Below, piece after piece: positions 2,584-48,584 of a stretch of 64,000 nt of DNA. The notes under the pieces are model-generated. The model was not told the DNA's origin. It did not search any database and saw only the letters and a list, made by a program, of their open reading frames with translations. Numbering within the stretch: the stretch's first letter is position 1; each line of letters begins with the position of its first letter. The position numbers and the translations under genes were made by a program. The stretch is from a virus (lineage: Duplodnaviria > Heunggongvirae > Uroviricota > Caudoviricetes), in the IMG/VR virus record IMGVR_UViG_2778261505_000002; one strand, 5' to 3'.

Positions 2584-2638
2584 CCTGCTTCCGTATATAT
2601 AAATAATAAGTAACTTATTAAATATATACGGAAGCAGG
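2584..2638. repeat. Long hairpin element, copy 1 (17-bp perfect arms CCTGCTTCCGTATATAT, 21-nt loop)
   Basis: Read directly; loop itself is a near-palindrome TAATAAGTAACTTATTA; homologous copy at 48528..48584; followed by T-rich tract. Confidence 0.6.
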
Positions 2639-2754
2639 TCTTTTAAAAGACACCACCAGAACAACTCCCTTCCGTTTCCACTTCCAAAAACTGCCACCAG
2701 TCGCTATCATCCGCTCATTGTGATAAGTAAGTAACTACCTACCAGGTGAGCCAC

Positions 2755-3495
2755 ATGAGCCAAATCTTTTTCGATACCATCGACAACGACCAGTACGACT
2801 TCATGACAGAGTGGAATACCGCTGTTATGGACAAGTGGGTCGCTGAAAACATTGGTTTGTCGCGCTGTAAAGACGAGGCTGAACTCTTCGAGACGAAGTG
2901 GTTTGATTACCGCGACATGCATCCTCTCATGGCCACCTGTCTTTTTACGGAGGCATACAAACGTCAGTACTCAAATATCATGCTGACGCACGGTCGCGAA
3001 CACTTTGAAACAGCTCCGTTCACCACCGGGTTAAAACGTCTGCCTTATCAGGAGTTGTCGACTGCCAATAAAACGTCGCTATGGAAAGCACGCCAGTTTG
3101 CGGATCGCTATTGCTGCTCATACGACTACTTTATCTCCACCGTTCTTTCCGCAGCTGCACGACGGCTGTGGGACAAGCTGCCGCGCCCACAGCATTTATG
3201 GCAGCCAGAACTGATTGAGATATTTGAAGAGAAATTAGCCAGACGCGCAACAACCCGTCTGGATGACTCTCTGGTTAGCTTTAAGCATATGGGAGACATG
3301 CAGTTCAACCCGATTCAGGAAAGCTATTTTGAGTGGATTCTGGAGCGTTTGCGCACCATCCCTCGCAGCAAGCGCATACGCGCAATTTTCTCCGCTATCT
3401 GGCTAATGGAAATCGTTCCAGAGCGCCTTATTTCCGCCCACTTTCCAGAAGAACTGGAAGAAGCACGGCGGTTTATTGATCCCCTATCTAATTAA
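2755..3495 (+). CDS. Hypothetical protein
   Basis: Track ORF 2746..3495 (GTG); ATG at 2755 after AGGTGAG; no recognisable motif. Confidence 0.45.
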   Translation: MSQIFFDTIDNDQYDFMTEWNTAVMDKWVAENIGLSRCKDEAELFETKWFDYRDMHPLMATCLFTEAYKRQYSNIMLTHGREHFETAPFTTGLKRLPYQELSTANKTSLWKARQFADRYCCSYDYFISTVLSAAARRLWDKLPRPQHLWQPELIEIFEEKLARRATTRLDDSLVSFKHMGDMQFNPIQESYFEWILERLRTIPRSKRIRAIFSAIWLMEIVPERLISAHFPEELEEARRFIDPLSN

Positions 3496-3538
3496 CTAAT
3501 ACTAGAAAACAATTTGTTTAAAAAACAAAGGAAAGCAC

Positions 3539-4879
3539 ATGACCGAACTTTGCCATACAGGACGCGGGCTGTCCGAAGAATTTGATGAAGATTTCCAGAA
3601 CAGACTGACGGCATATTTTTGTCGTGATCACGAGTTTCTTACTCGTGCGGGAGATCTGGTTGTGCCTAGCCAGTTTGCCAATGCGGCCAATGCCATATTG
3701 GTTAATATGGTTTCGGGCTATTACCGTATGTACAAGAGCGCGCCCTCTTCATCTGCAATTCTGGATATGCTTAAGCGTGCGAAACGCGATAAGACTATCC
3801 GTGAGGAACTATTCGCCGATGTTGTTGCTGCGTTTAAGCGCATCCTTGCAGAAAAATTGTCCGATACCTCGTACATGGTTGACCAGGTATCAACCTTCGC
3901 AAAAAGTGTAGCGTTTGATGATGCTCTGATTAAGGCTGCTGAACTGAAAGAGAAAGGCGACTTTCAGGGGGCGATGGCAATCATGGCCAAGGTTCAGCAG
4001 ATTGGATCGAACGAAGCGACCGGAATCTATGACTACTACACCTCCGCAAGTGAGCGATTGAAAGCGCGTGAATATGAGGCTTCAGAGGAGTATGTACCAA
4101 ACAGTATTACAACTGGACTCCCTCTTCTCGATAGGTTGCTGTACCAAAAAGGCTGGGCAAAGCGCGAAATGGTGCTCTTCATGGGGTTCGCTAAATCCGG
4201 TAAATCGACCGCAATGGGGGAGTTTTCCATAAACGCAACACTTGCTGGCTACAATGTTCTGTATCTCTCGCTGGAGGTTCACACCACCATTTTATCCGAC
4301 CGTTTTGATGCAAGATTGTCGGAGACGGAAATGTCCAAGTTGGTGGAACGGCGCGATGAAGTTCATCGTAAGTTGGCAGAGTTGGGAGCCTCTAAGGGGA
4401 TTGGTAGTTTGTGGGTTGTTGAGCGTCCGTCAGGAAGTATGTCACCGGCAGATCTGGACCGTATGCTTAACAGTATGAAAGCCAATGGCATGGTGCCTGA
4501 CATGGTTGTTGTCGACTACGCAGATTTGATGCGTGCCAGTTATGACCTTCGTGATGATCGCGCCAACATTCGTAGTATCTACACCGATTTACGTGCTCTT
4601 TATGACAAGCATAACGTTGCTGGGATCACGGCATCGCAGACAAACCGTGAAGGTGGCGCGTCAGAAGTTGCCACAATGATGCACGCTGCCGACAACATCG
4701 AAAAAGTACGTATTGCTGACCTGGTAATAACGATCAACAAAACCGAAGAAGAAGAAGCGAAAGGAGAGGCTCGTCTCTACTTTGCTGGTTCACGTAACCA
4801 GCAGGGAGGGATCAGCATTCGCGTTAAACAAAACCTCGAACAAATGCGCTTCATTGAGCGAATCTTAGACGTTACCTAA
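3539..4879 (+). CDS. DnaB-like replicative DNA helicase
   Basis: 446 aa; RecA-fold core with Walker A GFAKSGKST and Walker B-like VVVDYADLM; conserved upstream AAAGGAAAGCACATG start context. Confidence 0.8.
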   Translation: MTELCHTGRGLSEEFDEDFQNRLTAYFCRDHEFLTRAGDLVVPSQFANAANAILVNMVSGYYRMYKSAPSSSAILDMLKRAKRDKTIREELFADVVAAFKRILAEKLSDTSYMVDQVSTFAKSVAFDDALIKAAELKEKGDFQGAMAIMAKVQQIGSNEATGIYDYYTSASERLKAREYEASEEYVPNSITTGLPLLDRLLYQKGWAKREMVLFMGFAKSGKSTAMGEFSINATLAGYNVLYLSLEVHTTILSDRFDARLSETEMSKLVERRDEVHRKLAELGASKGIGSLWVVERPSGSMSPADLDRMLNSMKANGMVPDMVVVDYADLMRASYDLRDDRANIRSIYTDLRALYDKHNVAGITASQTNREGGASEVATMMHAADNIEKVRIADLVITINKTEEEEAKGEARLYFAGSRNQQGGISIRVKQNLEQMRFIERILDVT

Positions 4880-4960
4880 AAAATAAGCGTGGAGAACACC
4901 TCCACGCTTGATTCATTGGTGAAACAACTTTTCTTTTGCCAAACCACAAAAGAAAAACAC

Positions 4961-6142
4961 ATGAGCCTTTATGTTATATCAACATTTAGGTTGGTCACAA
5001 TATTGCCTGTTAAAAGTGGAATTATCGTGAGCGAGCTGAAAGAGCTAATTACCGAATTAGATTTTGAACAATGGTTGGATACTGAAGGTATCGTTTATCG
5101 ACGTGGAGGCGTGAGTGCTCGCGGTCGTGAAGTGAATATCAAGGAGTGTCCGGTATGCGGCAGCTCCAACTGGAAGGTATATTTCAATCTGACCAGTGGC
5201 GTCGGTAAATGCTTCGCTGGTGATCATCCCGAAGAGATTCAGTTCAATAAGCTGGTCTTCCTCAAGCACTACAGCGGCAAATCACGACGACAGTTCGAGG
5301 AATATGTGCAGAACGCCCTTCTTTCCCAGGGGTGGGCACCAAAGAAAGAAGAGCTAGTGCTTGCAAGCACAGTCGAGTTAGAGGGGCCAGTTGCACTCCC
5401 TCGTCATTACGAGCTTCCTATAGATGGTCGTCTTCCAGACTATCTGGTTGAACGAAACATATCGCCTGAAATGGCAAAGTATTTTGACCTACGATACTGC
5501 GTCGAAGGCAAGCACGCCTATGTAGATCCGTATACAGATCAGGTTAAAGGACAGATATTCGATATGCGAATACTGATACCGGTTTACGATCTGGATGGGG
5601 TAATGAAGACATTTCAGGGACGAGACATTACCGGTACAGCAGAACGCCGCTACCTCTTTCCTATGCAGCTTCCAGCTTCAGGTAAATTTCTCTACAACGG
5701 CCATAATGCAGTCGGCAAACAGACTGTAGTTGTCTGTGAGGGTGCGTTCGATGTTATGGGGGTCAAACGAGCTATTTTCGACGAAGAAACATTACGTGAT
5801 TACGTGGAGCCAATAGGAACGTTCGGGATGCATCTATCTGGCAACACCACTCAGGATGCAGAAGATCAGTTGGGCGCGTTCCTGACGCTCAAGGCGCGTG
5901 GATTACGTAATGTGATCATGATGTGGGATAGTGAAAAGCAAGCTATACGCAACACGATGGCCGCAGCCAGGCGACTGACCAGTATTGGTCTTAATGTCAA
6001 AGTGGCGTGTTTGGGCGAGGAAGGACTCGACCCGGGCGATGCAACGCCAGAGCAAATCATCAAAGCCTATTATCGGGCAAAACCGTATACCAAGCAGTTG
6101 GAGTTGCAAAGCAAGGTTTTGGGCATTAAGGCTCTATCATAA
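4961..6142 (+). CDS. DNA primase (zinc-ribbon plus TOPRIM, DnaG-like)
   Basis: CPVCGSSNW zinc-ribbon and VVVCEGAFDVMG TOPRIM motif; start placed at ATG 4961 with AAAAGAAAAACACATG context (track ORF begins at 4889). Confidence 0.75.
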   Translation: MSLYVISTFRLVTILPVKSGIIVSELKELITELDFEQWLDTEGIVYRRGGVSARGREVNIKECPVCGSSNWKVYFNLTSGVGKCFAGDHPEEIQFNKLVFLKHYSGKSRRQFEEYVQNALLSQGWAPKKEELVLASTVELEGPVALPRHYELPIDGRLPDYLVERNISPEMAKYFDLRYCVEGKHAYVDPYTDQVKGQIFDMRILIPVYDLDGVMKTFQGRDITGTAERRYLFPMQLPASGKFLYNGHNAVGKQTVVVCEGAFDVMGVKRAIFDEETLRDYVEPIGTFGMHLSGNTTQDAEDQLGAFLTLKARGLRNVIMMWDSEKQAIRNTMAAARRLTSIGLNVKVACLGEEGLDPGDATPEQIIKAYYRAKPYTKQLELQSKVLGIKALS

Positions 6143-6217
6143 CAATCACCTTCAAAATAAGTAGATGATTACTTATCTTTCTGTGAGAATACTTTCATCT
6201 GTTAGCTAGGAGTTGGT

Positions 6218-7000
6218 ATGAAAGACGAAATTCAGAAATTAGCCTGCGACATCATTGATAAAACTGGTTTAGAAATCAGCGAGAGCAATCGGCTAGACAT
6301 CATTGAAAAAGCCGTAAAAACAGCAATGGATCATATCGCCACTCGTTTGGTCGAGATCCCGCTACCGGGGCTACCTTATCTGAAGGTTAAGTTACACGTA
6401 TGGGGTGAACCTTCTTGTGCACGGCGTTCTGCATTAGTTGTTTTTATTAGCAAAGAAAACCCGATCAGTCTTAAAGTGCAGGTTGGGGCATGGATGGATG
6501 GCAAAGTGATCTACACAAATACCGTTTTTTGTGCGTCAAATGACAGTATTATTGAAGAGGCTATTCAAGAATCACTTCTAACTATGCATAGCTTATTTTT
6601 GCTGGAAGACAAGCAAAACTACGAAGAGTACTTACGGTCGATAAAAGGTGAGAGAACATTGTCACTTAAAGCCGATTTCGTTACCCCGACAAACCTGTTG
6701 GAAGTCTTGCTTAATAAAGGGGCTAATGATGCCGTAAATGTAATCAGAGAGAGTGAGTATGCGTCTCTTTGCGACATGTGCAAAAGCCAGTTGGATCTGG
6801 TGCATATCGTTATTGATGCTGGGAAGGCATGTGATGGCGTAATGGCGGAGTTTGCTGGGAAGATGGTCAGGATTGCTAACGAATTACCGATGATAGAGCA
6901 AGAGGCTAAATCATACGCCACCAATCATGTCACAGAGCTTCTTGTCCCCTATCGCTTAGAAAGCGATCAGCGCAAGATGATTAGCTGGGGAAGTTGGTAA
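6218..7000 (+). CDS. Hypothetical protein
   Basis: 260-aa ORF, AGGAG RBS before ATG; no recognisable motif. Confidence 0.5.
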   Translation: MKDEIQKLACDIIDKTGLEISESNRLDIIEKAVKTAMDHIATRLVEIPLPGLPYLKVKLHVWGEPSCARRSALVVFISKENPISLKVQVGAWMDGKVIYTNTVFCASNDSIIEEAIQESLLTMHSLFLLEDKQNYEEYLRSIKGERTLSLKADFVTPTNLLEVLLNKGANDAVNVIRESEYASLCDMCKSQLDLVHIVIDAGKACDGVMAEFAGKMVRIANELPMIEQEAKSYATNHVTELLVPYRLESDQRKMISWGSW

Positions 7001-7055
7001 GCTCTCAGTGTGTCGTTTTTTACGCAAATAATGATAGGTAAGCACAAGATTATTT

Positions 7056-7538
7056 TTGGCGGTAATTGTGAAAGCTGATTTGTCAAAAATCCCCTCTATT
7101 TCAGGAAATAATGGTTATTCACTTCGTTGTGAGGAAGTAAAGATAAACGGTGAGTCGGCATATTGCAGCTACTCCGTTTGCCAGCACACCATTCTTGCCT
7201 TCAAAGAAAACCGTCTTCCTCGAACTTCATTCCAGTCGTGCGCAACCGCTATCAAAGCAGGCAAATGCAAGGCGTTAAAAATGATGGTTGAAGAGATTCG
7301 TAAAGGAGAATCTCTGTATTTCGAAGATATGACCGCGCTCATTAAGGAGGTTGAAGAACGGAATAAACAAGCCAGAACTTTAAAACGAAAACGTGACAGT
7401 GTAACGATTAATAGCATGGTTAAGAAGAGCGCCACATCACAAACAGCGATCACTGACGTGTATGCGGCGTTGCTTGAAGAAACAACAAAAGAAACACATG
7501 AGCAAATCGATCAACATATGGAGGTAAAACAACAATGA
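7056..7538 (+). CDS. Hypothetical Cys-rich protein (start uncertain)
   Basis: Track ORF starts at TTG; several Cys residues; true start may be an internal GTG/ATG. Confidence 0.35.
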   Translation: MAVIVKADLSKIPSISGNNGYSLRCEEVKINGESAYCSYSVCQHTILAFKENRLPRTSFQSCATAIKAGKCKALKMMVEEIRKGESLYFEDMTALIKEVEERNKQARTLKRKRDSVTINSMVKKSATSQTAITDVYAALLEETTKETHEQIDQHMEVKQQ

Positions 7539-8857
7539 AAAAGTTGATCGCACTTAAGCATAAGCTGGACGAAATGAAAGTTATGGGCACCAATGCAAAA
7601 AAAGAGGCATTGGCCAACATGGATGACTTTGAACAAAGCATGGTTTCATTGATGCTCAACCCTTTCATCCGTTTTGGGGTAAAGAAATACAAAGTGGCAG
7701 AGCCGCTTAGTGAGTCCATCCCAAGTGACGAAAAAGCCATTGATGTACTGAATAAGCTGGCCTCTCGCGAGCTAACGGGGAACGCAGCAATAGCAGCTGT
7801 TGAGTCTATCGTGGCGTCAATGTGCGCCGATGGGCAGGACGTGTTCCGTCGTTTCCTCTTAAAAGACCCGAAAGCTGGCGTTGGGATTAGCCTATGCAAC
7901 AAGGTTTTTGAAAATCCCATTCCGAAATTCGAGGTGCAGCTGGCGTCACCGTATAAAGAAAAAGGCGACAAATACCCCTTCAAGCCAAATCCTAAAGCAA
8001 AATGGCCGATGATTGGCAGTCTTAAGCTCGATGGTTTGCGAGTAATTTGCGAGGTTATTGTTGACGAGGAAGAGGTTAACTTCCTTTCTCGTACTGGTAA
8101 TCCAATCACGTCTCTCGATCACCTAAAGCCAGCCATGCTCGAATTAGGCAAACTTTCAGGCCACAAACACATCTTCTTCGATGGTGAAGGAACTGCCGGT
8201 TCATTTAACCAGTCCGTATCTGCATTGCGCAAAAAGAACGTGCAGGCAATTGGCGCTATTTATCATGTTTTCGACTTCTTCCTACCGGAATGGCGAGCAC
8301 AGGCTAAATCCAAAGAGTATGCAAAGACAGGTATGAAGCTGAAAGAGCGCCTGGCTATGCTGGTGGCGTTGTTCAAAAACGATCGCAGTGAAGGCTACAC
8401 ACAAGACATTCACCTGCATCCGTTCTATATCATCCATAGCCACGAAGACTTCATCGAACGCTTCATGAAACGCCTGGACGATAACGAAGAAGGGGAGATG
8501 GGCAAAGATCCGAACTCTGTTTACGAGTTTAAACGTACCCGCAGCTGGTGGAAGTTAAAAGACGAAGATTCAGAAGATGGTGAAATTATCGACTTTGAGC
8601 CGGGCGACCCGGACTCTGGTTTTGCCAACACACTTGGAAAAATTGTTATTCGTCTTGAAAACGGCGTCATCGTTCGTGCGAGCGGCATTAAGCATAAATA
8701 TCTGGATGAGATCTGGAACAACAAAGAGAAGTACCGTGGTCGTATTGTCGAGGTTCATTGTCACGAGAAAACACCGGACGGCAGCTTACGCCACCCACGA
8801 CTGAAATGGCCGCGTTGCTTACGCGATACAGAAGATCGAATCGGAGATAAAGAATGA
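7535..8857 (+). CDS. ATP-dependent DNA ligase
   Basis: 440 aa; adenylation motif I GSLKLDGLR (KxDG), FFDGEG, and C-terminal LRHPRL OB-fold signature. Confidence 0.8.
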   Translation: MKKLIALKHKLDEMKVMGTNAKKEALANMDDFEQSMVSLMLNPFIRFGVKKYKVAEPLSESIPSDEKAIDVLNKLASRELTGNAAIAAVESIVASMCADGQDVFRRFLLKDPKAGVGISLCNKVFENPIPKFEVQLASPYKEKGDKYPFKPNPKAKWPMIGSLKLDGLRVICEVIVDEEEVNFLSRTGNPITSLDHLKPAMLELGKLSGHKHIFFDGEGTAGSFNQSVSALRKKNVQAIGAIYHVFDFFLPEWRAQAKSKEYAKTGMKLKERLAMLVALFKNDRSEGYTQDIHLHPFYIIHSHEDFIERFMKRLDDNEEGEMGKDPNSVYEFKRTRSWWKLKDEDSEDGEIIDFEPGDPDSGFANTLGKIVIRLENGVIVRASGIKHKYLDEIWNNKEKYRGRIVEVHCHEKTPDGSLRHPRLKWPRCLRDTEDRIGDKE

Positions 8858-9033
8858 TGCTCGGCTGGATGATTGCATTTTTAGCAGTTGGTTTTTTCAT
8901 AGGTATTGTGGTGATGTCCAGTTGCATCAATGACTACATTAAAAGCGGTGTTATAGAAAGACGCGGTCGTATTTATCGCATTGTAGAAATAACCAACACC
9001 CTGAAGGAGATTAAGGATGATCGTATTAAGTAA
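8854..9033 (+). CDS. Small membrane protein (59 aa, not in ORF track)
   Basis: ATG overlaps ligase stop (ATGA); MMLGWMIAFLAVGFFIGIVVM hydrophobic helix. Confidence 0.35.
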   Translation: MMLGWMIAFLAVGFFIGIVVMSSCINDYIKSGVIERRGRIYRIVEITNTLKEIKDDRIK

Positions 9034-9232
9034 ACGGGAGAAGGAAACGCTTCATGAAATCAGTAAGTGGCCGGAGTTCCCTGAGTACTGGAAGCCTAAA
9101 ACGCGAGCTAAGTTAGAGCGTTTAGGGTTGGTTGCAAACGTTTCTGAAACGTGGTGTTCGGCCAACTACCAGTTAACTGATAAAGGGAAAGTATTGCTAC
9201 AGCAATTAGTAGAATCAGGAGCGTTAAAATGA
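9017..9232 (+). CDS. Hypothetical protein
   Basis: 71-aa ORF with AAGGAG RBS 7 nt upstream. Confidence 0.4.
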   Translation: MIVLSKREKETLHEISKWPEFPEYWKPKTRAKLERLGLVANVSETWCSANYQLTDKGKVLLQQLVESGALK

Positions 9233-9381
9233 TTCCATACATCTCATTAGCTTTTATGGGTGGCTTCCTTATCGGCTTCGGCATCTGTCGTGATTTAATT
9301 AAGCAGGAACTTAAAACCAAAACACTGTGCATCGGAAAGCGTGTGTATCGGGTAGTTCATGAAACAAAGGTGAAAATATGA
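9229..9381 (+). CDS. Small membrane protein (50 aa, not in ORF track)
   Basis: ATGA overlap with previous stop; MIPYISLAFMGGFLIGFGI helix; its first 16 nt recur at 10240 and 11892. Confidence 0.35.
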   Translation: MIPYISLAFMGGFLIGFGICRDLIKQELKTKTLCIGKRVYRVVHETKVKI

Positions 9382-21207: not shown

Positions 21208-21216
21208 TCCCATAAA

Positions 21217-21240
21217 CATGGCCTCTATGGCCATGTTTTC
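21217..21240 (+). terminator. Rho-independent terminator
   Basis: CATGGCC-TCTA-GGCCATG followed by TTTTCC. Confidence 0.5.
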
Positions 21241-21332
21241 CCTTATCCCCTCATATCCCCTATCCTCGAACTCCTTGCCTTATCATCACAATGATATAAT
21301 CAATATAAGATGATAAGTAAAAAGGAAAGCAC

Positions 21333-30918: not shown

Positions 30919-31452
30919 CACCGCTGACAGCATACACAATCAACTACCGCTGATAGCATATCGAGAGTCTATCTCACCGCTCACAGCATACATTACTCGA
31001 TTTTTTACCGCTGACAGCATACTTAAGAAATTGCATGAATAATGTGTCCCGGTATGGGTATAACCAGAACAAAATTACCGCTGGCAGCATACGAATGTCT
31101 GACATATACCATTAATTACCGCTGATAGCATATCCAAACAAAAATTCCTCAATAAAACACCGCTGACAGCATACATTCTATCAGAGAGTAGCAGGCAATA
31201 AATGCCTTTCACTACAAGCAATCAGCGCAATAGCAATAGAATGTTAGTGAGCGCAAACCTATATGGAATGCACTCTTCGAGGTTAGTAACCACTGGGGAG
31301 GTATGACAGAGCATTGAGTGGTGATAGATGATTTACCGCTCACAGCATACGTTCATCTCACTATACCGCTGGTAGCATATCTTTAACCGTTCACAGCATA
31401 CTTTTCAGAAAAATAGCCGCTGATAGCATACATTTCACCGCTGACAGCATAT
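30919..31452. repeat. Iteron array (about 12 copies of ~17-bp repeat ACCGCTGACAGCATAC) downstream of repA
   Basis: Copies counted by eye with minor variants (CTGATAGCATAT, CTCACAGCATAC, CTGGCAGCATAC); irregular spacing with a ~150-bp gap between copies 7 and 8. Confidence 0.8.
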
Positions 31453-32546
31453 CAAAGCAGTTTGAGACTATTGGAAAGGATCTCAATCATCTTGATATTT
31501 TCAGGCGTCAAATTCTGCGAAAGTTCGGTTATCTTGTTGATAATGTTCTGTTTGGCATCAATTTCCCCAGCTTTCTCATCTGGTTTTTTGGGTTCGATGT
31601 CTTCAGGTTTTGGCGGTGCGACTTTGAGTTTTGGATTGCGGCTGTGAATCTGGATATAGATCGACCGCCCACGCTTAATCTCGCTGTATTCGAGATAGCC
31701 CAAATCTTGGAGAGCTTTTAAGCCGTTACGTATAGTCTGATTCTGCGAGCTGACATTCCTGCTACTCAAATTGAGTCGCGCACGCAATCGAGCAAGCGAT
31801 ACCGGCGCAGGCTTGGTTGGAAGACTTTCGATGAAGGTGTACAGAGCCTGTGCTGTTTCTTTGCGTGGTAGCTTATTGATAACCTTTAACTGCAAAAGAA
31901 CCTTATGGTCAAAGCGATATAGTTCGGCCAGCTTCGGTTCTGCATAGAACACCACCGTATCTTTCTGCTCGTTGTAGTCCACGCTATTGATGAGGTGCAC
32001 CATCAGAAGCGAGATCTTGTTAGAGCCGTCGACGTTCTTTTCTTCATACGTTCTCTGGAAAGACAGAGTTGTACGCATGATCTTCAAAAGACTGTTTGTA
32101 AGCCGGTCGCGGAGTGTTTTGCGGATCTGTGACGATGGATAGCCACAAAACTTAGCAAATTTCGTGATACTTAACTCGACACGACCGTTAGGTTCGCCGT
32201 ATTCTGCCAGCGAACGCACAACGCCCACCCACGTTTTGAAATCATGATCCATGTCGAGACGAGGACCGGTTATCTTGATATCGGAATAGCCTTCAGAACG
32301 GGCTACTTCGAGCTGGACAAGCTCCTTTGAAGCATCGATCTCATTTGGCTTGTTACGTTTACTGTATTTTGTTCCCTTAAGCGTGGGGACGAACAACCCC
32401 AGTCGCATCAACGCAATTGGTTGGACTGTATTGTTGCTATTAGGGACAAGTTCCCCTGTGTACAATTCAAGGGAACCTTCTTCAAAGTTGTCGATGTTAT
32501 CTTCTACTTCTTTGTTATTTTTACCTTTTTTATTTTTTGTGGACAT
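31452..32546 (-). CDS. repA: Iteron-binding replication initiator RepA
   Basis: 364 aa from Met at 32546 (track ORF extends into the upstream iterons); NSNNTVQPIALMRLGLFVP and IKITGPRLDMDHDFKTW segments match what I recall of P1/RepFIB-type RepA; flanked by iteron arrays. Confidence 0.8.
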   Translation of the reverse strand: MSTKNKKGKNNKEVEDNIDNFEEGSLELYTGELVPNSNNTVQPIALMRLGLFVPTLKGTKYSKRNKPNEIDASKELVQLEVARSEGYSDIKITGPRLDMDHDFKTWVGVVRSLAEYGEPNGRVELSITKFAKFCGYPSSQIRKTLRDRLTNSLLKIMRTTLSFQRTYEEKNVDGSNKISLLMVHLINSVDYNEQKDTVVFYAEPKLAELYRFDHKVLLQLKVINKLPRKETAQALYTFIESLPTKPAPVSLARLRARLNLSSRNVSSQNQTIRNGLKALQDLGYLEYSEIKRGRSIYIQIHSRNPKLKVAPPKPEDIEPKKPDEKAGEIDAKQNIINKITELSQNLTPENIKMIEILSNSLKLL

Positions 32547-32565
32547 GTGGACACCTTTGTCATTC

Positions 32566-32668
32566 AACCGCTGACAGCATACTTGATTTGCCGCTGACAG
32601 AATACCAAAAACAGTTGGCAGCATACGGTGAACCGCTGACAGACTATCAATTACCGCTGACAGCATAC
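32566..32668. repeat. Origin-side iterons (5 copies) upstream of repA
   Basis: Same CCGCTGACAGCATAC repeat family, five copies within ~100 bp immediately 5' of repA. Confidence 0.75.
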
Positions 32669-32708
32669 ATGAACATGACTTCAGACCAGTCGTGGCGCGG
32701 CTTACAGC

Positions 32709-38375: not shown

Positions 38376-38383
38376 GGTGATAC

Positions 38384-40699: not shown

Positions 40700-40704
40700 C
40701 ATAT

Positions 40705-40733
40705 GGTGGGGGATATCCCCACCTTCTCTTTGA
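40705..40733 (+). terminator. Rho-independent terminator
   Basis: GGTGGGGGAT-ATCCCCACC hairpin followed by T-rich tract. Confidence 0.55.
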
Positions 40734-40805
40734 TTTGTAAGCCTTGTTTAAACACATAAGATAACAACTTGTTTAAACGCACCAAAAAAGAAAAAGGAAA
40801 AACAC

Positions 40806-41948
40806 ATGTCATATTCAACGTTCCGTTTGGGTGCTAATGATGCAACCAAAGAGCCTATGTTCCTCGGACAATCTGTCAACGTGGCACGTTACGATCAGCA
40901 AAAATACCGTGATTTTGAAAAGTTGATTGAACGTCAATTGTCTTTCTTCTGGCGGCCGGAAGAAGTTGATATTTCGAGCGATCGTATCGACTTCAACACG
41001 AAGCTGCGGGACCACGAACGTCACATTTTTCTGAGCAATCTCCGTTATCAAACGTTACTCGATTCAGTTCAGGGACGTAGTCCAAATGCAACGCTGCTGC
41101 CGCTTATCTCTATTCCTGAACTGGAAACGTGGGTTGAAACGTGGTCTTTCTCTGAGACTATCCATAGCCGCAGCTACACCCACATTATTCGTGGCATGGT
41201 GGACGATCCGAGCATTGTTTTTGACGGTATTGTTACGGATGAAGAAATCATCAACCGAGCGATCAGTATCTCTGCTGAATATGACAGGCTTTATGGGATG
41301 ACCTGCGAGCGCCAGTCGTTAGGTGAGAAGGAATTTGAGCGTCTGTACGTAAATGAATATGGCTGGGAGCCATACCCTTTGCATCGTCAGCTTTTCCGCA
41401 CGTTGGTGTCCATTAATGCGCTTGAGGCGATCCGTTTCTACGTAAGTTTTGCATGTACGTTTGCCTTTGGTGAACGGAAGTTGCTTGAGGGTAACACCAA
41501 AATTATGCGCTTTATTGCCCGTGATGAAGCTCTGCATTGCGAAGGAACTGAACGCATGATCCGCTTCATGCGTACCGGTCGCGAAGGTTTATTGTGGAAA
41601 GAGATTGCTGCTGATGAAGAAAACGTCATTTACGACACCATGAAATCAGTCGCCGAACAAGAAATGAACTGGGCAGACTATCTCTTCAAAGACGGTTCGA
41701 TGATTGGTTTAAACGCGGATATTCTCAAAACCTATGTAAAATACCGCACCAATCTGGCTATGAATCGTCTTGGCCTGAAGGCTTTATTTCCAGAAGTTAC
41801 CACTGATCCGCTGGTCTGGATGAACAAGTGGTTGTTAACCGACACACTGCAAATTGCGCCACAAGAGGCAGAGCAAAGCACATATCTGGTAGGTCAGATC
41901 GATTCTACCGTGGATAAGGCTTCTCTAAGCCAGTTTGCAGACCTGTAA
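40806..41948 (+). CDS. nrdB: Ribonucleoside-diphosphate reductase beta subunit (class Ia)
   Basis: 380 aa; collinear with enterobacterial NrdB ([41 protein letters not shown]). Confidence 0.9.
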
Positions 41949-42025
41949 ACCGATACAAAGCATTATATGGCCTGGCAACGCTGGGCCACAATGGATCACA
42001 AGAATTAAGAAGGAGCAAAACTAGC

Positions 42026-42895
42026 ATGAACTTTACCAAACTGACTGACCACCTGAAACTTGCCACCGATCGACTCATTGGATTTAAGCCAGAACCATAT
42101 GAGTTGCATGAAGGCCATGGTGTAGCCACTGAAAGTATTTACAAGATGGTCGATCAGTTTCATGAACTCTTCCAGCATCCGAGACGCGTTATGCCGACAC
42201 CAGAGCTGCTTCGTCTCCGTGCAAGCCTGATTCATGAAGAAGCTGTAGTGGAAGGTATTCCAGCCGCAATGAATGGGGATATTGAGCAACTGCTGGATGC
42301 AATGGCCGACTTTTTATACGTTGGTGTTGGTACGATGGTCGCCATCAAAGGTGGTATTTCTACCGGCATGACTTATTACACGCAGGAACAGAGCATTGAT
42401 CGCTTTATGCAGACAATTTTTGTGCCTGGTAACACTGTTTTCGATGATATGGCAATGCCATTTCAGGAAGCTCGTGAGGCGTCATGTATGCTCGAAGAGC
42501 TGGCAGATAAACTTGAGAAGAAGACTGTTAAGGATTCTGAGCTGATTCAGGAACTGCGCCGTGTAATGAACAAAATCTATGTGGCGTGCATGATGACTTA
42601 TCGACTGGCTGATTTTCTCGGTATCAATGTCGTCGAGCTGGTTGGCGAAATTCATCGGTCCAACATGACAAAATTATGGCCTGCAGATGCCGAAGAGCGT
42701 CGCCATGCTGTGGCCAACTGCAAATACGACTCTTCTGACCTGGGATTTCGCCATGCTGATGGCACCGATAAGATGATCGGTTTTCGAATTTCCGATGGAA
42801 AGATTCTGAAGTCTCCAACCTATAGTGATGTCGATTTATCCTCCTTTGTTGAGCAAGCTAAAGCCTCAGCAATGTACGGAATGATCAAAAAATAA
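42026..42895 (+). CDS. Hypothetical protein; possible MazG/HisE-like nucleotide pyrophosphohydrolase
   Basis: 289 aa; acidic helix pairs IHEEAVVEG ... DIEQLLDAMADF loosely fit the MazG-type ExxE...ExxD pattern. Confidence 0.35.
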   Translation: MNFTKLTDHLKLATDRLIGFKPEPYELHEGHGVATESIYKMVDQFHELFQHPRRVMPTPELLRLRASLIHEEAVVEGIPAAMNGDIEQLLDAMADFLYVGVGTMVAIKGGISTGMTYYTQEQSIDRFMQTIFVPGNTVFDDMAMPFQEAREASCMLEELADKLEKKTVKDSELIQELRRVMNKIYVACMMTYRLADFLGINVVELVGEIHRSNMTKLWPADAEERRHAVANCKYDSSDLGFRHADGTDKMIGFRISDGKILKSPTYSDVDLSSFVEQAKASAMYGMIKK

Positions 42896-42964
42896 TTGTA
42901 GGTAGTTATCTATCTGTGTATATTGCGCTGGCGCGTTAAATTTCTGAAACAACTATTCGTTTTT

Positions 42965-42990
42965 GGTGGCCTATGGCCACCATTTTTTTA
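42965..42990 (+). terminator. Rho-independent terminator
   Basis: GGTGGCC-TAT-GGCCACC followed by TTTTTTT. Confidence 0.7.
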
Positions 42991-43039
42991 TCTGTCTGGT
43001 CTTGTTCTCTCAATAAATGTAAACTCACGCAATGAATAA

Positions 43040-44170
43040 GTGGTTACTTATCTTTGTGAGGTTTTTGTGTCACTCCTTTTGAATCGTGAGCATACGAACG
43101 GTCAGGTAACAAACGCATCGTATGCAAAAGTTATTGAGACGGTGCTTAAAAGCGGCGTGCAGGCTGATGATCGCACAGGCACTGGTACTTTAAGCACCTG
43201 CTACGTTCCCTCTTACTACATGCTTACTGGTGGGACTGTGCCGCTTATTTCTGGAAAGGCGGTAAATCTTAAGCCACTGCTTGTCGAACTTGAGTGGTAT
43301 CTGAAAGGCACGGGCAACATCCAATTTCTCAAGGATAACGGCGTTAAGATTTGGGATGCATGGGCCGATGAGAATGGCGATTTGGGGCCGGTTTACGGTA
43401 AGCAGTGGCGTCGATGGGAAGATACCCGCATCGTGAGCCATAGTGAATATCTGAGCAAGATCGCTACTTTCCGTGAACGCGGGTACAAAGTCGAGGGATA
43501 CCTGGGTATCAGTGAAGATCGCGTAGTGCTGTCCCGTGAAATCGATCAGCTACAGCGTATTGTCGATACACTGCGCACGAACCCTACCGATCGTCGCATC
43601 ATGCTTAACGCATGGAACGTAGGCGAGCTTGAGGATATGAAACTGCCACCTTGCCACTTTGTCTTCTCTTTGTGGAGTCGTGAACTGGATTTTGAAACCC
43701 GTTTAACGATGGCAACTGACATTGGTCTTCAACACAGTCGCCTCGGTTACGAGTCTATCTACACCAAGATGCTATACGATCTGGAGATGGACGGCAGTGT
43801 TACTGAAACTGAACTGGATGAACTTGGAATCCCCAAACGCATCCTCAACTCCTGCCTCGTACAGCGTAGCGTAGACACTTTTGTTGGTATGCCATTCAAT
43901 ATTGCTGGCTATGGCATTCTCACTCATTTTCTCGCGAAGATTACGGGTCACATGGCCGGTGCATTTGTGCATTTTGGCTTTGACGTGCATTTGTACAACA
44001 ACCACATGGAAGGTGTGTGTGAGCTAATGCAACGACAGGCTCCAGAGCATTCAGATCCGGTCGTTATATTCCCTAATGAATGGTCTGAGCTGGATGATTT
44101 CAAATGGGACGAGATTCTTATTCTTGGCTATGCCCCTCTACCGTGGATCAAGGTTCCAGTGGCGGTGTGA
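43040..44170 (+). CDS. thyA: Thymidylate synthase (ThyA family) with two internal insertions; start uncertain
   Basis: DRTGTGTLS, WADENGDLGPVYGKQWR, RRIMLNAWNVGELEDMKLPPCH, MPFNIAGY; ~30-aa and ~50-aa insertions relative to E. coli ThyA; track start is GTG 43040, alternative GTG 43067. Confidence 0.85.
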   Translation: MVTYLCEVFVSLLLNREHTNGQVTNASYAKVIETVLKSGVQADDRTGTGTLSTCYVPSYYMLTGGTVPLISGKAVNLKPLLVELEWYLKGTGNIQFLKDNGVKIWDAWADENGDLGPVYGKQWRRWEDTRIVSHSEYLSKIATFRERGYKVEGYLGISEDRVVLSREIDQLQRIVDTLRTNPTDRRIMLNAWNVGELEDMKLPPCHFVFSLWSRELDFETRLTMATDIGLQHSRLGYESIYTKMLYDLEMDGSVTETELDELGIPKRILNSCLVQRSVDTFVGMPFNIAGYGILTHFLAKITGHMAGAFVHFGFDVHLYNNHMEGVCELMQRQAPEHSDPVVIFPNEWSELDDFKWDEILILGYAPLPWIKVPVAV

Positions 44171-44171
44171 T

Positions 44172-44585
44172 ATGGCAAGAGGTATGTATGTCTTATGCGA
44201 AATTGAAGGTGTGCTGGCAAATACCAGCCATCGTAAATCTGTATCTGACTCGGATGCAGGCCAATTCATTGCCGGTGATGAACTCATTTTCCCCACCAGC
44301 CGTATGTTGCGTGGTTTTGCTCGCTCAGGGGCTGAAGTGGTGCTTATCAGTAGCCGCTCTGAAACTCTTGAAGCGCCCACTAAACGATGGCTGAAAGATT
44401 TTGGTGTTGATTACGACTGGCTTCACCTCGTACCGAATAGCACTAGTTATGAGAAGCATATTAAGCGCACATTAGCGGAGCATAAAGGCGATCTGCTTAT
44501 CGCTGCGCTGGTGCACGATCCTCGACTCCGTGCCGCTTTAGCTGACTCTCATCATAGACCGGTCATCTATGAGGTGAGCAAATGA
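44172..44585 (+). CDS. Hypothetical protein
   Basis: Track ORF 44076..44585 overlaps thyA; first ATG after thyA stop at 44172. Confidence 0.4.
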   Translation: MARGMYVLCEIEGVLANTSHRKSVSDSDAGQFIAGDELIFPTSRMLRGFARSGAEVVLISSRSETLEAPTKRWLKDFGVDYDWLHLVPNSTSYEKHIKRTLAEHKGDLLIAALVHDPRLRAALADSHHRPVIYEVSK

Positions 44586-45058
44586 AGATGATAGCTGCTG
44601 TTGGCCGTAACTATGAGATCGGCATAGCGAACGAACTGCCCTGGCGTTGTTCTACCGATCTGAAGCTATTTAAGAGACTCACCAAAAACGCCACTGTCGT
44701 TATGGGGCGTAAAACGATGGAAAGTCTCAAACGCCCTCTTCCAGAGCGTCATAACCTCGTTTTGACGCGCTCTCATGGCTTTGTACCAAATGGATTCTAC
44801 CCTGCTGGTGTGGATGATGTGTTGCGATTACCAGAGCCTGTGTGGGTGATTGGCGGGGAACAAATTTACTCGCTATTCATGCCGCATGTTGAAGAGATTT
44901 GGCTCTCCCACATCGGCGTTGATGTGCCAAACGCCGATGCATTCTTCCCGGCAAGCATGATGCGTAATTTAGGCTTTGTGCCTGTTGAAACAGCTTATAC
45001 CCAACGAGCCAGCGAGGAAGAGCCTGGCTTTTCGCAGATCGTATACAGAAGGTCGTAA
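44582..45058 (+). CDS. Dihydrofolate reductase
   Basis: 158 aa; IAAVGRNYEIG, LPW, VVMGRKT and VIGG segments align with FolA-type DHFR. Confidence 0.8.
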   Translation: MKMIAAVGRNYEIGIANELPWRCSTDLKLFKRLTKNATVVMGRKTMESLKRPLPERHNLVLTRSHGFVPNGFYPAGVDDVLRLPEPVWVIGGEQIYSLFMPHVEEIWLSHIGVDVPNADAFFPASMMRNLGFVPVETAYTQRASEEEPGFSQIVYRRS

Positions 45059-45702
45059 TGGATTACCGGATTGGGATCACTGGTGCTCAGGGCAGTGGGA
45101 AAACAACCCTGGCTAAATATATCGACAAACATTACGGAATCCCTTACGTGGATGCTGGTGTCGGAAGTTTGATGAGCCGCCTCGGTGTTCGAGTAAGTGA
45201 TTCTATGCCTCTATATGAGCGGCTTCAGATTCAAATGGAAATAGCAAAGCATATAGAGCTACTTACGCGTGGTGCTGAAGGCTTTGTTATCGATCGCACA
45301 CCTGCTGATGTTATGGCCTACACGTTGGATTTGGTCGGCCATACAAATGAAGATCGGTGTATTGAGTTAGCCCTCGATATCGAAAAGTTTTGCCACAAAA
45401 CTGCTATTTCAAACTTTAACGCCATTGCTGGCCTACGCCCGGGGGTCGCTCTCTCAGAGCGAGATTACTTGCGGTCACAACGAGCATCATTAGACCGTCT
45501 GTATGTCGCTCGTATTGATGCGTTGATGTGCGGGGAACTGACAAAAATTCACCTGCATCCGCAAAGGGGAGATCTGCAAACCTTCGTCGTTTCCAACCGG
45601 TATCGCACAGTTGAAGCAAGAGCCAGATCAGTGATGAGAATGCTAGATAACGCTGTAGAAAAGATAGAAAACCGGTTCTGTGGCCGAGTGACCGTTCATT
45701 AG
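45058..45702 (+). CDS. P-loop nucleotide kinase-like protein (dNMP kinase candidate)
   Basis: 214 aa; N-terminal Walker A ITGAQGSGKTTLA; FVIDRTPAD downstream. Confidence 0.5.
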   Translation: MDYRIGITGAQGSGKTTLAKYIDKHYGIPYVDAGVGSLMSRLGVRVSDSMPLYERLQIQMEIAKHIELLTRGAEGFVIDRTPADVMAYTLDLVGHTNEDRCIELALDIEKFCHKTAISNFNAIAGLRPGVALSERDYLRSQRASLDRLYVARIDALMCGELTKIHLHPQRGDLQTFVVSNRYRTVEARARSVMRMLDNAVEKIENRFCGRVTVH

Positions 45703-45763
45703 AAATTGTTCGCCTCTTCGACATTGCGACAATAAAACTCTCAAAATGGGTTAAGGATAAAAA

Positions 45764-46183
45764 ATGTTTAGTGAAATGTTGCTTGAAGATGAACTGGATC
45801 GGAAAACAACAGAGGCTTTGATTCGTGTAGCGGACGAACATTCCCGGTCGCTTATGAGCGATCGAGAGGCTCGTCTGGCTATTCGTGCCATATTCGAAAC
45901 TGCGCAGGGGCTTGTTGGTACACAAGTGGGTGAAGCCATTAACATCGCCATGTCTCAGTTCAGTGAAGGCAGTAAAAAGCCTCTGTTTCCTATGCATTTG
46001 ATGCTGGCTGGTGGCACGGTGCTTTATATCTCTGTTTGTCTGGATAGCAACCAAATCAATATTCTCAACACTGTGTCAGGTAAGTGGAAAGATCCGATTG
46101 TCTGTGAAACCAGTGAAGAAACTTTGAAAAAAGCGGCTCAATTTGTACGTAGCGCACTACTTAAGGGCGCTAAGAAGTTGTAA
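45764..46183 (+). CDS. Hypothetical protein
   Basis: 139-aa ORF; no recognisable motif. Confidence 0.45.
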   Translation: MFSEMLLEDELDRKTTEALIRVADEHSRSLMSDREARLAIRAIFETAQGLVGTQVGEAINIAMSQFSEGSKKPLFPMHLMLAGGTVLYISVCLDSNQINILNTVSGKWKDPIVCETSEETLKKAAQFVRSALLKGAKKL

Positions 46184-46192
46184 GGAGTTCTG

Positions 46193-46750
46193 ATGACAAC
46201 GATTGTTGCAGGCATCGATATCGAGTCTACGGGACTGGATTTCCTTGCTGGTCATAAAATTATTGAAATCGCAATTACCCGCTATGAACTGGAGACACAG
46301 AGACATATTGATAGTCTGGAGATGCGTTTTAACCCTCGCAGAAACATAGATCCGAAAGCTCAAGCCGTTCATGGCATTTCATTGGAACAGCTCGCAGCTG
46401 AACCTTTGTTGTCAAATCATGCCAGCGAAATTGGCGCTTATATGGGGGCATGTAGTGTGTGGGTTGCTCATAACGGCGAAGCATTTGATATACCATTTAT
46501 TCGACACGAGTTTTCAGGGTATGGAGTAAGACTGCCAGAAGTTCCTGTTATAGATACTATGTTATCGGGATTTTGGGCCACAGAAGACGGTAAACGTCCC
46601 CGCCTTGAAGAGTTGGCCTTCTCTCTTGGCTTTATATACGATCATGCCAAAGCACATAGTGCCTTATATGACACAAACTTAATGATGCAATGCTTCTTTA
46701 AGGCACGTAATAAGTACGGATTTTTTAAATTACCCTCTGAAATTGTGTAA
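46193..46750 (+). CDS. DnaQ-like DEDDh 3'-5' exonuclease
   Basis: 185 aa; Exo I GIDIESTGL, Exo II VAHNGEAFDIPF, Exo III HSALYD. Confidence 0.75.
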   Translation: MTTIVAGIDIESTGLDFLAGHKIIEIAITRYELETQRHIDSLEMRFNPRRNIDPKAQAVHGISLEQLAAEPLLSNHASEIGAYMGACSVWVAHNGEAFDIPFIRHEFSGYGVRLPEVPVIDTMLSGFWATEDGKRPRLEELAFSLGFIYDHAKAHSALYDTNLMMQCFFKARNKYGFFKLPSEIV

Positions 46751-46754
46751 AACA

Positions 46755-46793
46755 AAAGCCTACTTTAAAAAGTTTAAAGTAGGCTTTCTTTTA
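46755..46793 (+). terminator. Rho-independent terminator
   Basis: AAAGCCTACTTTAAA ... TTTAAAGTAGGCTTT long hairpin followed by CTTTT. Confidence 0.65.
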
Positions 46794-46908
46794 AAGAACA
46801 GTCGCCTTTCAATCATTTCCTGCCTGTATTTAATACTTTTCCGCCTGATAGGTTTAGTCAAAATGCAGCCATCGAAACGCAAATGTAACCAAACAGAAGG
46901 AGACTTAC

Positions 46909-47718
46909 ATGAGTTCGGTTGAAAATGTAATGACAAATGATGATCTGGACGAGCTGACAGCCATGTTGCAATCACTTGATGAACCAGTAAAAAAAGCTGC
47001 ACAGGTTGAAAATACTGATGATATTGACGATCTGCTGCTCGGCCTAGATGCTGGCGTAGCCATGAGTTCTGATGATGTTGCCGAAGAACTGTTCAATGAA
47101 GAAAAAGCAGGTGATTTCAGCTCTGCTTTAAATGAGTTGGAGTTAGCGCATGAGCCTATAAACGTAATTAACGCTGAAAGTGTTGAAGCTGCCGAAAACG
47201 AGCCAGAACAATTGGGATTTATTGAGGTTGAAGAGTGTGTTGAGGTTAATGATGAATTAAAAGTTCAACAGTCAAATGATAGCAATACAAATAAAAAAGC
47301 TCGTACTGCAAGAGGTCCTCGTTTTACTTTAAGTGATAAAGATGATTCGTTTTTCAATAAAGCGGGCTTAGAAAAAGATATTTTCTTAGACGCTTACGAT
47401 AACGCGCCTGTCAAAGCAAAGGATAAGATATTAAACCTTCTTAATTGGTTTAGCGGAGGTCCAGATATTAGTGTTTACACGGTAATTTCCATGAGACACC
47501 TTCTCACAGAAAAGAAGGCTACAAGTAATAGTATTAAGATTGCTTTAATGAGCAATCCAGAAAAACCGTATCCGCTTAATACTGCGTCAACTCAGGCTGG
47601 GCAAATGATGGCTGTATTTCCAGCGACAGGAATTGCCGTTAGAGACGGTGGAAATCTAACATTGAACGAAGAATCACCGATCGTTAAGAAGTTTGTCGCG
47701 GAGTACACTATTGGATGA
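46909..47718 (+). CDS. Hypothetical protein with strongly acidic N-terminal half
   Basis: 269 aa; first ~110 residues are D/E-rich. Confidence 0.45.
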   Translation: MSSVENVMTNDDLDELTAMLQSLDEPVKKAAQVENTDDIDDLLLGLDAGVAMSSDDVAEELFNEEKAGDFSSALNELELAHEPINVINAESVEAAENEPEQLGFIEVEECVEVNDELKVQQSNDSNTNKKARTARGPRFTLSDKDDSFFNKAGLEKDIFLDAYDNAPVKAKDKILNLLNWFSGGPDISVYTVISMRHLLTEKKATSNSIKIALMSNPEKPYPLNTASTQAGQMMAVFPATGIAVRDGGNLTLNEESPIVKKFVAEYTIG

Positions 47719-47901
47719 CGTTCCCCTACTTAAAATAAAGCCCATAGAGAGCTTTATAGTACTGGGTAAGCCAATCACATACCCAGCACCACAAAAACGC
47801 GCTAGAGAGCTTCTCGTTTGCATTTCTGGCGCGTTTTATTTGATTGCCAGACATAAAATCAAATGCAAAAATAGGTATATACTTACCTATCGAGAAAGAA
47901 G

Positions 47902-48495
47902 ATGATTGCAGCCGAAAAAATCAAACAGCGAAAGCGCGACAACTCTCTTCGTGACCTCTGGAGAACACCTGACTGGCTGTTTTCTGCCATTCAACGTTAT
48001 CTTGGAGTGACATTTGATGTTGACGTTGCCTGCAACAAGGACAATGCAAAGCTGCCTAATTTCATAGGCGTTGAGCGTGATGCTTTGAAATCTGAATGGG
48101 GACAGCCAGGTACAATTGCCTTCCTCAATCCACCCTACTCCAAAATCTACCCCTGGATTGATGCGGCTATACGTGAGCAGGCTCGCGGAGTTACAACAGT
48201 GATGCTAATTCCTCAATCCCTAGATACAAAGTGGTATGAGCGTGCAACAGAGTGTGCGAATGAGACGATTATTCTGTCTGGTGGCCGCGTAGCGTTTGTC
48301 GAGCCTGACGTAAATCTGGGGCAGGTAGAAGTAAACATCAACCCAGGTGGCAGTATGCTCGTTGTTTTTCGAGGATTCTGTCAGGACGCTGGGCACTCTA
48401 TAAGCAAGATCCCTTTGGACGTCATGAAAAGTCTGGGAGGGTATGATCCTGCGAATGTGATCAGGAAAAAAAGACCATCAAAGAAGGCTGCTTAG
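47902..48495 (+). CDS. DNA N6-adenine methyltransferase (phage Dam-like, orphan)
   Basis: 197 aa; WRTPDWLF N-terminal motif and catalytic NPPYS; no adjacent restriction endonuclease gene. Confidence 0.75.
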   Translation: MIAAEKIKQRKRDNSLRDLWRTPDWLFSAIQRYLGVTFDVDVACNKDNAKLPNFIGVERDALKSEWGQPGTIAFLNPPYSKIYPWIDAAIREQARGVTTVMLIPQSLDTKWYERATECANETIILSGGRVAFVEPDVNLGQVEVNINPGGSMLVVFRGFCQDAGHSISKIPLDVMKSLGGYDPANVIRKKRPSKKAA

Positions 48496-48527
48496 TTTGT
48501 TCTGGCGTCTGTAATTAGCCTGCTTCT

Positions 48528-48584
48528 GTATATATAAATAACTACATATTAATTATTAATATACGGAAGAAGGCTGTTTTGTAT
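48528..48584. repeat. Long hairpin element, copy 2 (homolog of 2584..2638)
   Basis: GCCTGCTTCTGTATATAT ... ATATACGGAAGAAGGC imperfect inverted repeat around an AT-rich loop; followed by GTTTTG. Confidence 0.6.

Follow-up and report, generated by a model that had tools for sequence, protein, structure and literature searches.

A conserved three-copy hairpin of SSU5-like phage-plasmids, a candidate transcription terminator at gene-block borders and a mosaic seam

We analysed a 64-kb stretch of viral DNA (IMG/VR virus record IMGVR_UViG_2778261505_000002; hereinafter, the window) that carries two homologous long hairpins, copy 1 and copy 2, at loci that we denote sites A and B. The flanks of both hairpins are 99.5-99.6% identical to those of Escherichia phage CMS-2020a, also match PhiR41_1 and Cyrano, and show 76-81% identity to Salmonella phage SSU5 and Klebsiella phage-plasmids; judged by these matches, the window is 64 kb out of a roughly 108-kb SSU5-like phage-plasmid. 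Its genes are almost all directed rightward. The two loci comprise the following features (nt, nucleotides; aa, amino acids).

2556-2567, plus strand: left outer segment of copy 1 (TTCTGG..GTCT), complementary to 2648-2661 (AGAC..CCAGAA) in the minimum-free-energy helices
2583-2639, plus strand: hairpin core of copy 1 (site A), whose arms recur unchanged in relatives at sites A, B and C
2640-2649, plus strand: U-rich tail of copy 1, CTTTTAAAAG, with T2639 just before it, read from the sequence
2640-2745, plus strand: C-rich, G-poor spacer (33% C, 11% G), reaching up to the GATAAGTA motif and ribosome-binding site of the next gene
2755-3495, plus strand: 246-aa gene (phrog_2500), first after copy 1, heading a helicase/primase block
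47902-48495, plus strand: Dam-type adenine methyltransferase gene (PF05869, E = 2.9e-38), stopping 22 nt before copy 2
48495-48510, plus strand: left outer segment of copy 2, GTTTGTTCTGGCGTCT, complementary to 48588-48604
48518-48576, plus strand: hairpin core of copy 2 (site B), with an AT-rich apex
48574-48584, plus strand: U-rich tail of copy 2, CTGTTTTGTAT, read from the sequence
48681-48911, plus strand: 76-aa gene (phrog_5343), first after copy 2, 107 nt downstream

The repeat is genuine and beyond chance. Positions 2583-2638 and 48518-48573 align without gaps at 79% identity, and the 24-mer of the left arm, GCCTGCTTCYGTATATATAAATAA, has two matches in the window with at most three mismatches, compared with 0.00 expected (100 shuffles). 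The original prediction, made from the window alone, of two homologous hairpins with about 80% identity is thereby confirmed, and the sequence it quoted is correct; its range for copy 2, 48528-48584, starts about 10 nt late relative to the core at 48518-48576. Copy 1 folds into a perfect 18-bp stem (2583-2600 / 2622-2639), followed by a 3x1 internal loop and a 7-bp apical stem (2604-2610 / 2614-2620), with a folding energy of -32.4 kcal/mol (z = -8.6). Copy 2 is built alike, its 17-bp stem containing one G.A mismatch and one U.G pair (48516-48521 / 48571-48576 and 48523-48533 / 48559-48569; -22.4 kcal/mol, z = -3.6). On the plus-strand RNA, the lower stem is G+C-rich (CCUGCUUCYG / CRGAAGCAGG), and T-rich sequence follows the stems (TCTTTTAAAA for copy 1, CTGTTTTGTAT for copy 2), so that the predicted stem of about 17 bp, AT-rich loop and T-rich sequence are all present. 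As RNA, the tails read UCUUUUAAAA and CUGUUUUGUAU, both of which include four consecutive U. Both copies show the stable stem-loop with a G+C-rich base that is expected of an intrinsic terminator. In the 80 nt after each copy, the excess of C over G ranks at the 99.99th (copy 1) and 98.4th (copy 2) percentile of the window, and the spacer after copy 1 is conserved among relatives.

A profile built from 50 distinct variants of the hairpin puts the number of copies at exactly three for SSU5 and Cyrano alike and at two for the window, with plus-strand scores exceeding minus-strand scores every time. Beyond the two copies originally predicted, the window contains none, and the complete relatives SSU5 and Cyrano hold the third, site C, beyond the limits of the window and about 117 nt ahead of the small terminase gene. 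Site A precedes the phrog_2500 gene, the DnaB-like helicase gene and the primase gene; site B follows dam, which carries the same annotation in Cyrano and SSU5; site C precedes the small terminase gene. At all three sites and in a single orientation, the core starts 22-25 nt past a plus-strand stop codon and ends 107-117 nt ahead of the next start. For copy 2, the upstream stop is that of dam, 22 nt before the stem, as the original prediction of a Dam-like gene had it; for site A, a plus-strand gene ends 22-24 nt before the hairpin in Cyrano, SSU5 and the Klebsiella plasmid pJN2-26. The earlier proposal that copy 2 is the terminator following dam fits these results, but a private terminator it is not, being one of three conserved paralogues.

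The element is present across hundreds of SSU5-like phage-plasmids. Of the 801 plasmid records in PLSDB that contain the site A segment, 314 are from Klebsiella, 237 from Escherichia, 92 from Enterobacter, 62 from Yersinia and 49 from Salmonella, among others, and syntenic, co-oriented copies occur in plasmids of Escherichia, Salmonella, Klebsiella, Enterobacter, Citrobacter, Cronobacter and Yersinia. The records include Yersinia pestis plasmids of about 96-101 kb; in one Y. pestis plasmid, it is site C that matches. The IMG/VR scan yielded many contigs, in which every true hairpin mapped to the syntenic site A, B or C; pattern scans of IMG/VR for hairpins of distant lineages gave chance matches only. 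We found no description of this three-copy element in the literature searched. An intergenic imperfect palindrome with inverted outer arms, present in near-identical copies within one genome, could also be a selfish or neutral repeat, similar to miniature inverted-repeat transposable elements (MITEs) or repetitive extragenic palindromes (REPs), that spread to three places and persisted there. One copy indeed survives in an unrelated IncF plasmid next to insertion sequences. Such repeats, however, come in many non-syntenic, polymorphic copies, whereas here there are exactly three, always syntenic and co-oriented; neither presence/absence polymorphism nor a transposase partner was seen, and strong purifying selection acts on the arms as the flanks diverge, all of which renders a selfish origin highly improbable. 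The fixed syntenic three-copy pattern likewise speaks against a relationship to the ERIC and REP families. In the IncF case (NZ_CP062900.1, a 141-kb conjugative plasmid), the embedded fragment consists of a parB-like gene, the GIY-YIG gene and hairpin A, and is cut by an IS3 element right after the hairpin region.

The genes on the two sides of copy 1, apart from the phrog_2500 gene, are as follows.

625-1293, plus strand: parA, which together with its partner gene forms a plasmid-maintenance operon (625-1652)
1293-1652, plus strand: parA partner gene, 119 aa, of the same operon, which is expressed in the Cyrano lysogen
1705-2472, minus strand: lineage-specific cargo gene with a GIY-YIG nuclease domain (PF22945, E = 5.5e-7), in the variable slot left of copy 1
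3539-4879, plus strand: DnaB-like helicase gene, in the block headed by the phrog_2500 gene
4889-6142, plus strand: primase gene, in the same block

Published RNA sequencing (RNA-seq) of an LF82 lysogen of Cyrano (PMC9928086 S1 Table) shows what happens to transcription along this region in a relative. The normalised reads are 49.8 for parA (CYRAN_28), 89.1 for CYRAN_29 and 54.6 for CYRAN_30, which ends 24 nt before site A, compared with 6.2 for CYRAN_31, the first gene past site A (background median, 9.8). From CYRAN_30 to CYRAN_31, the log2 drop is 2.9-7.9 in 10/10 samples, that is, 7- to 240-fold (PMC9928086 S1 Table), and the hairpin is the only structure within the 193-nt gap between the two genes. 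The same table gives a drop of just 2- to 4-fold across site C. The genes on either side of site B are at background, the one after the hairpin usually being above dam, which suggests a start signal downstream of this hairpin.

The arms, whose conservation in relatives the original prediction had named as a check, are almost invariant at stem positions 1-14 over the three paralogous sites and all genera; the variable parts are the upper stem, which is AT-rich, the loop and the flanks. The sole polymorphic pair is at position 9 (T.G in 31 variants, C.G in 10, C.A in 6, T.A in 3). A T-run directly follows the core in 19/20 site A variants and 13/14 site B variants, though its sequence differs between lineages. 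Farther out, the arms are kept in a relative with 65% identity in the downstream protein. In a Raoultella-type relative (59%), the stem persists although three successive pairs differ on both sides (GTA/TAC to CAT/ATG), an apparent compensatory change. In Morganella-type relatives (48-49%), site A is occupied by an ordinary terminator, ATGGGAGCA...TGCTCCCAT, with a T-run after it. The synteny of the phrog_2500, helicase and primase genes holds down to 48% identity. At site C, a Klebsiella michiganensis-type relative has a hairpin plus T8, and the Xenorhabdus and Moellerella types have no hairpin. Ordinary junctions in the window (11812-12021 and 21208-21332) repeat the layout seen at the hairpins, namely, a stop codon, a short terminator, a C-rich/G-poor spacer, the GATAAGTA motif and the next gene. 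The terminators at these junctions read AACGGCTC-ACAG-GAGCCGTT and AACATGGCC-TCTA-GGCCATGTT, respectively.

Within a genome, the copies are nearly identical: the site A and site C cores of CMS-2020a are identical at 55/55 positions, and the loops of sites A and C share lineage-specific variants, which points to homogenisation between copies. Copy 1 also marks a boundary. Homology to SSU5, Klebsiella phages and most of the 801 plasmid records begins at 2583-2584, the first base of the hairpin, and the left contexts of site A are of at least 10 unrelated kinds. On these grounds, copy 1 is the conserved right-hand seam of a cargo hotspot, that is, a mosaic junction. The minus-strand GIY-YIG gene of the window is present in CMS-2020a SCU-107 and in PhiR41_1, and other genes occupy this place in Cyrano, SSU5 and the Klebsiella plasmids. 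The original prediction that copy 1 has no plus-strand gene upstream is thus true of the window and does not extend to the relatives; in the lineage of the window, the upstream plus-strand gene was replaced by the GIY-YIG gene, hence the lack. The idea that copy 1 is a recombination site holds to the extent that homology begins at the first base of the repeat, but the exchange looks like homologous recombination at a conserved repeat rather than the work of a dedicated site-specific system. The GIY-YIG domain of the 1705-2472 product is LEM-3-like, and this gene could encode a free-standing homing-type nuclease tied to the mosaic junction.

Taken together, the tails kept at sites A and B, the drop in Cyrano transcripts, the ordinary terminators at equivalent positions, the repeated junction layout, the placement after stop codons in one orientation and the compensatory change in the Raoultella-type relative lead us to the interpretation that both copies in the window bring about termination or 3'-end formation of rightward transcripts at the borders of gene blocks, with copy 1 serving as an insulator and the repeat doubling as a recombination seam. 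We put the probability of this interpretation at roughly 55%. The hairpins would then be paralogous copies, two of the three per genome, of a clade-specific, sequence-conserved stem-loop that punctuates the rightward-transcribed SSU5-like genome. The G+C-rich lower stem together with the U-rich tail on the plus-strand RNA would act as a factor-independent terminator or a 3'-end hairpin; we infer that transcription stops at the hairpin itself. Copy 1 would shield the lytic replication block, from the phrog_2500 gene to the primase gene, from the maintenance and cargo transcription on its left, which is on in lysogeny. Copy 2 would close the unit that ends with dam, and the C-rich spacer along with a new start signal would open the next block. 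Gene conversion could homogenise the copies, as their near identity suggests, and use of the copies as seams for homologous recombination would account for the cargo region stopping just where copy 1 begins. A small plus-strand RNA ending at copy 1, which the original prediction had considered, is neither needed nor supported, with no consensus promoter found in 2473-2582. No promoter-like sites were detected in or beside copy 1 either, and those near copy 2 are chance-level matches only.

Several observations weigh against the terminator interpretation. In the window, copy 1 has no co-oriented gene directly upstream. The T-runs are short, with four consecutive U, and in site C variants a T-run is never present. 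The hairpins are unlike the approximately 11 ordinary plus-strand terminators of the window, which are unrelated in sequence and combine G+C-rich stems of 6-9 bp with loops of 3-6 nt, and a scan for consensus terminators called neither copy. The RNAs of the two strands fold about equally well overall, with mixed outcomes and a better minus strand at site B of the SSU5 lineage, so that strand specificity is unproven; the strand bias of RNA folding was dropped as a criterion. Because the stem pairs do not vary within the clade, RNAalifold had no covariation to score there. The RNA-seq drop comes from the relative Cyrano, is at gene resolution and is informative for site A only. Finally, the invariance of the arms across sites and genera, set against flanks that are about 76-80% identical, exceeds what termination requires. 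The sequence invariance, the stem length and the U-less site C are left unexplained by termination.

A role at the level of DNA could account for both the invariance and the full palindrome without U-tract at site C. In this case, the element would be a palindromic or cruciform site bound by one or more phage proteins: a lytic origin, a pac site with secondary copies, a dispersed centromere, or a break/recombination site that serves the phage-encoded T4-like UvsX/UvsY/UvsW/SbcCD-like machinery. In favour of this role, both arms are conserved in sequence, nearly without change at positions 1-14, beyond the needs of a terminator, and RNA stability is not clearly higher for the plus strand; the AT-rich centre and the CCAGA-like pentamers that recur downstream of the hairpins fit as well. 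Arms of the form TCTGGG / CCCAGA extend the palindrome to about 110 bp at two places, site C and the SSU5-lineage site B, where the gain from flank pairing over shuffled flanks is strong (z = -3.8 to -4.9). The location of site C, about 117 nt upstream of the small terminase gene, and of site A, directly upstream of the helicase-primase block, is circumstantial support for a packaging or replication site. The loop is inverted in two lineages that have a different left gene, with the hairpin otherwise unchanged, so its polarity appears to be dispensable. Furthermore, the GenBank records of SSU5 (JQ965645) and Cyrano (OV696614) are both linearised within the site C loop, and in many metagenomic contigs of IMG/VR, one of the three hairpins is no more than 200 nt from the end. 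These ends, however, are equally well explained, and probably caused, by assembly breakage at a 55-nt repeat and palindrome, and we set physical genome ends at the hairpins aside on this account, real DNA ends at site C being the less likely alternative; literature on the termini was not found, and the record of vB_KpnS_p4727 begins at a gene. No partner protein was recognised, and homology searches with the small genes neighbouring the hairpins gave nothing informative. In particular, the 246-aa protein encoded downstream of copy 1 has no homologue in Pfam, NCBIfam or PDB, and was dropped as a candidate initiator. The cumulative GC skew is monotonic, with no inflection at either copy, and was discarded as an origin signal. 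Three direct-repeat sites of cleavage or recombination would fragment or delete the genome. With the stop-codon placement, the T-tails at sites A and B, the RNA-seq drop and the ordinary terminators in distant relatives all favouring RNA, a purely DNA-level role is doubtful.

A regulated role in RNA could likewise account for the invariance, which would fit recognition by a trans-acting factor, and for the U-less palindrome of site C. The hairpins might be regulated RNA elements, either RNase III processing or retroregulation sites, by the logic of lambda sib/tI and the T7 R-sites, or antiterminator targets, by nut/put logic, that open three blocks in turn. The core is a near-continuous duplex of about 25 bp with an asymmetric internal loop, homologous co-oriented copies stand at the heads of three large gene blocks, rut-like C-rich, G-poor tracts follow sites A and B, and the 2- to 4-fold step at site C is what a leaky or regulated stop would produce. 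In most variants, single-sequence folds enclose the core in an outer helix, TCTGGG / CCCAGA, that pairs sequence past the U-tail with sequence before the stem, a longer duplex that would form only after read-through. This outer pairing is not significant at copy 1 (z = -0.5, no gain over shuffled flanks), however, and is marginal at copy 2 (z = -1.7; 24/500 shuffles). No N-, Q- or put-like component was recognised, and in an Rfam search of the whole window and both loci only tRNAs passed the gathering score, the hairpins giving sub-threshold generic miRNA-hairpin matches. The resemblance of the tail to boxA is weak and on the wrong side of the hairpin. This explanation seems unlikely.

A tentative, rather improbable alternative joins these strands: a phage factor would recognise the three elements, as DNA or as RNA, in the manner of sequence-specific cis sites, and sites A and B would additionally serve as terminators. 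In one version, they would be palindromic lytic origins or break/recombination sites that feed T4-like recombination-replication, the 110-bp palindrome by the small terminase gene being the master copy. In the other, they would be targets of a dedicated antiterminator that opens the three blocks sequentially, with the arms as the recognition sequence. Two motifs within the hairpins were considered and dropped. The T4-type late promoter TATAAATA is contained in both hairpins, but has 3 occurrences in the window compared with 1.8 expected, and no gp55-like factor was seen; the right-arm motif GGRAGCANGG, tried as a dispersed promoter element, has no further copies.

Terminator function at sites A and B, the interpretation that we favour, finds partial parallels in known systems. 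Like the intrinsic terminators of enterobacterial phages and plasmids, the hairpins consist of a stem-loop with a G+C-rich base, followed at sites A and B by a U-rich tail, and lie just past a stop codon on the transcribed strand; at site A of Cyrano, the gene-level transcript signal falls across the hairpin. Unlike them, they have a 17-18 bp stem with an AT-rich upper half, a second apical stem and a short tail, and are conserved in sequence at three paralogous sites and in several genera, with a third site that has no U-tract. T4-type phages carry PeSLs, composite cassettes of an early promoter and a stem-loop terminator (PMC2839356, PMC4122927). PeSLs, too, are repeated, conserved intergenic cassettes that edge hyperplastic cargo regions and mark points of exchange between unrelated sequences (PMC2839356, PMC4122927). 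The present element differs in its copy number, three in a genome instead of dozens, in that the repeat yielded no match to a consensus sigma-70 promoter, in having a copy only at the right edge of the variable region and in showing no sequence relationship to the T4-type PeSLs. With lambda sib/tI and the T7 RNase III sites, the hairpins share the length, the position at gene ends, the pairing that can be extended past the tail on read-through and the homologous, co-oriented copies; here, only site C and the SSU5-lineage site B show strong extended pairing, and cleavage by RNase III is hypothetical. Herpesviruses (oriS and oriL) and phage SPP1 (oriL and oriR) have more than one homologous origin in a genome, each a palindrome around an AT-rich centre. 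Two or three homologous AT-centred palindromes, one of them beside replication genes, are likewise found here; in contrast to those systems, no initiator accompanies them, and the stop-codon placement and RNA-seq drop fit transcription better.

Other features of the window and its relatives lie outside this argument. A cluster of three tRNA genes is located at 10447-10690 (plus strand). A Rep3-type repA gene (PF01051) at 31452-32666 (minus strand) is flanked by arrays of ACCGCTGACAGCATA-like iterons at 30926-31455 and 32586-32671; judged by this arrangement, repA and the two arrays are the plasmid replication origin region. The palindrome AAACAAnTTGTTT occurs nine times on the plus strand, compared with 0.31 expected (577, 3507, 14037, 26451, 40762, 50983, 51712, 52426 and 55333), always 20-45 nt upstream of a start codon (parA, DnaB-like helicase, ribonucleotide reductase beta subunit and others), and, in Cyrano and SSU5, twice in the interval that separates site C from the small terminase gene; the motif probably serves a phage regulator as operator or activator site. 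That interval (Cyrano 1-135, SSU5 1-134) also contains, just ahead of the terminase gene and after two AAACAAGTTGTTT motifs, a G+C-rich hairpin, AGAGCGC-N6-GCGCTCT, followed by GTGTGTTTT, which might act as a regulated terminator within the late-operon leader. An intergenic inverted-repeat family, ATAAGTA-N6-TACTTAT, has 22 matches in the window compared with 2.3 expected, including those at 2723, 6157, 9679, 21778, 25298, 30128, 33635, 38319, 43032, 47871, 50085 and 54136, and may represent a promoter or operator motif; the apex of copy 1 (AATAAGTAACTTATT) resembles a compressed form of it. Repeats of AAATGATTCCATAC are found at 9227, 10239 and 11890 (plus strand) and 17935 (minus strand), some of them paired in inverted orientation, for example, 11891-11903 with 11911-11923.

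Clinical Enterobacterales commonly carry SSU5-like phage-plasmids. If the interpretation proposed here is correct, the hairpin at site A would be an insulator that permits the expression of cargo and maintenance genes in the lysogen without switching on lytic replication and, at the same time, the fixed right-hand seam of a cargo hotspot. The element could then serve as an annotation landmark, a predicted break point of short-read assemblies and a target for testing the tightness of lysogeny in phage-plasmids, and the unexplained invariance of its sequence offers a lead toward a trans-acting factor.

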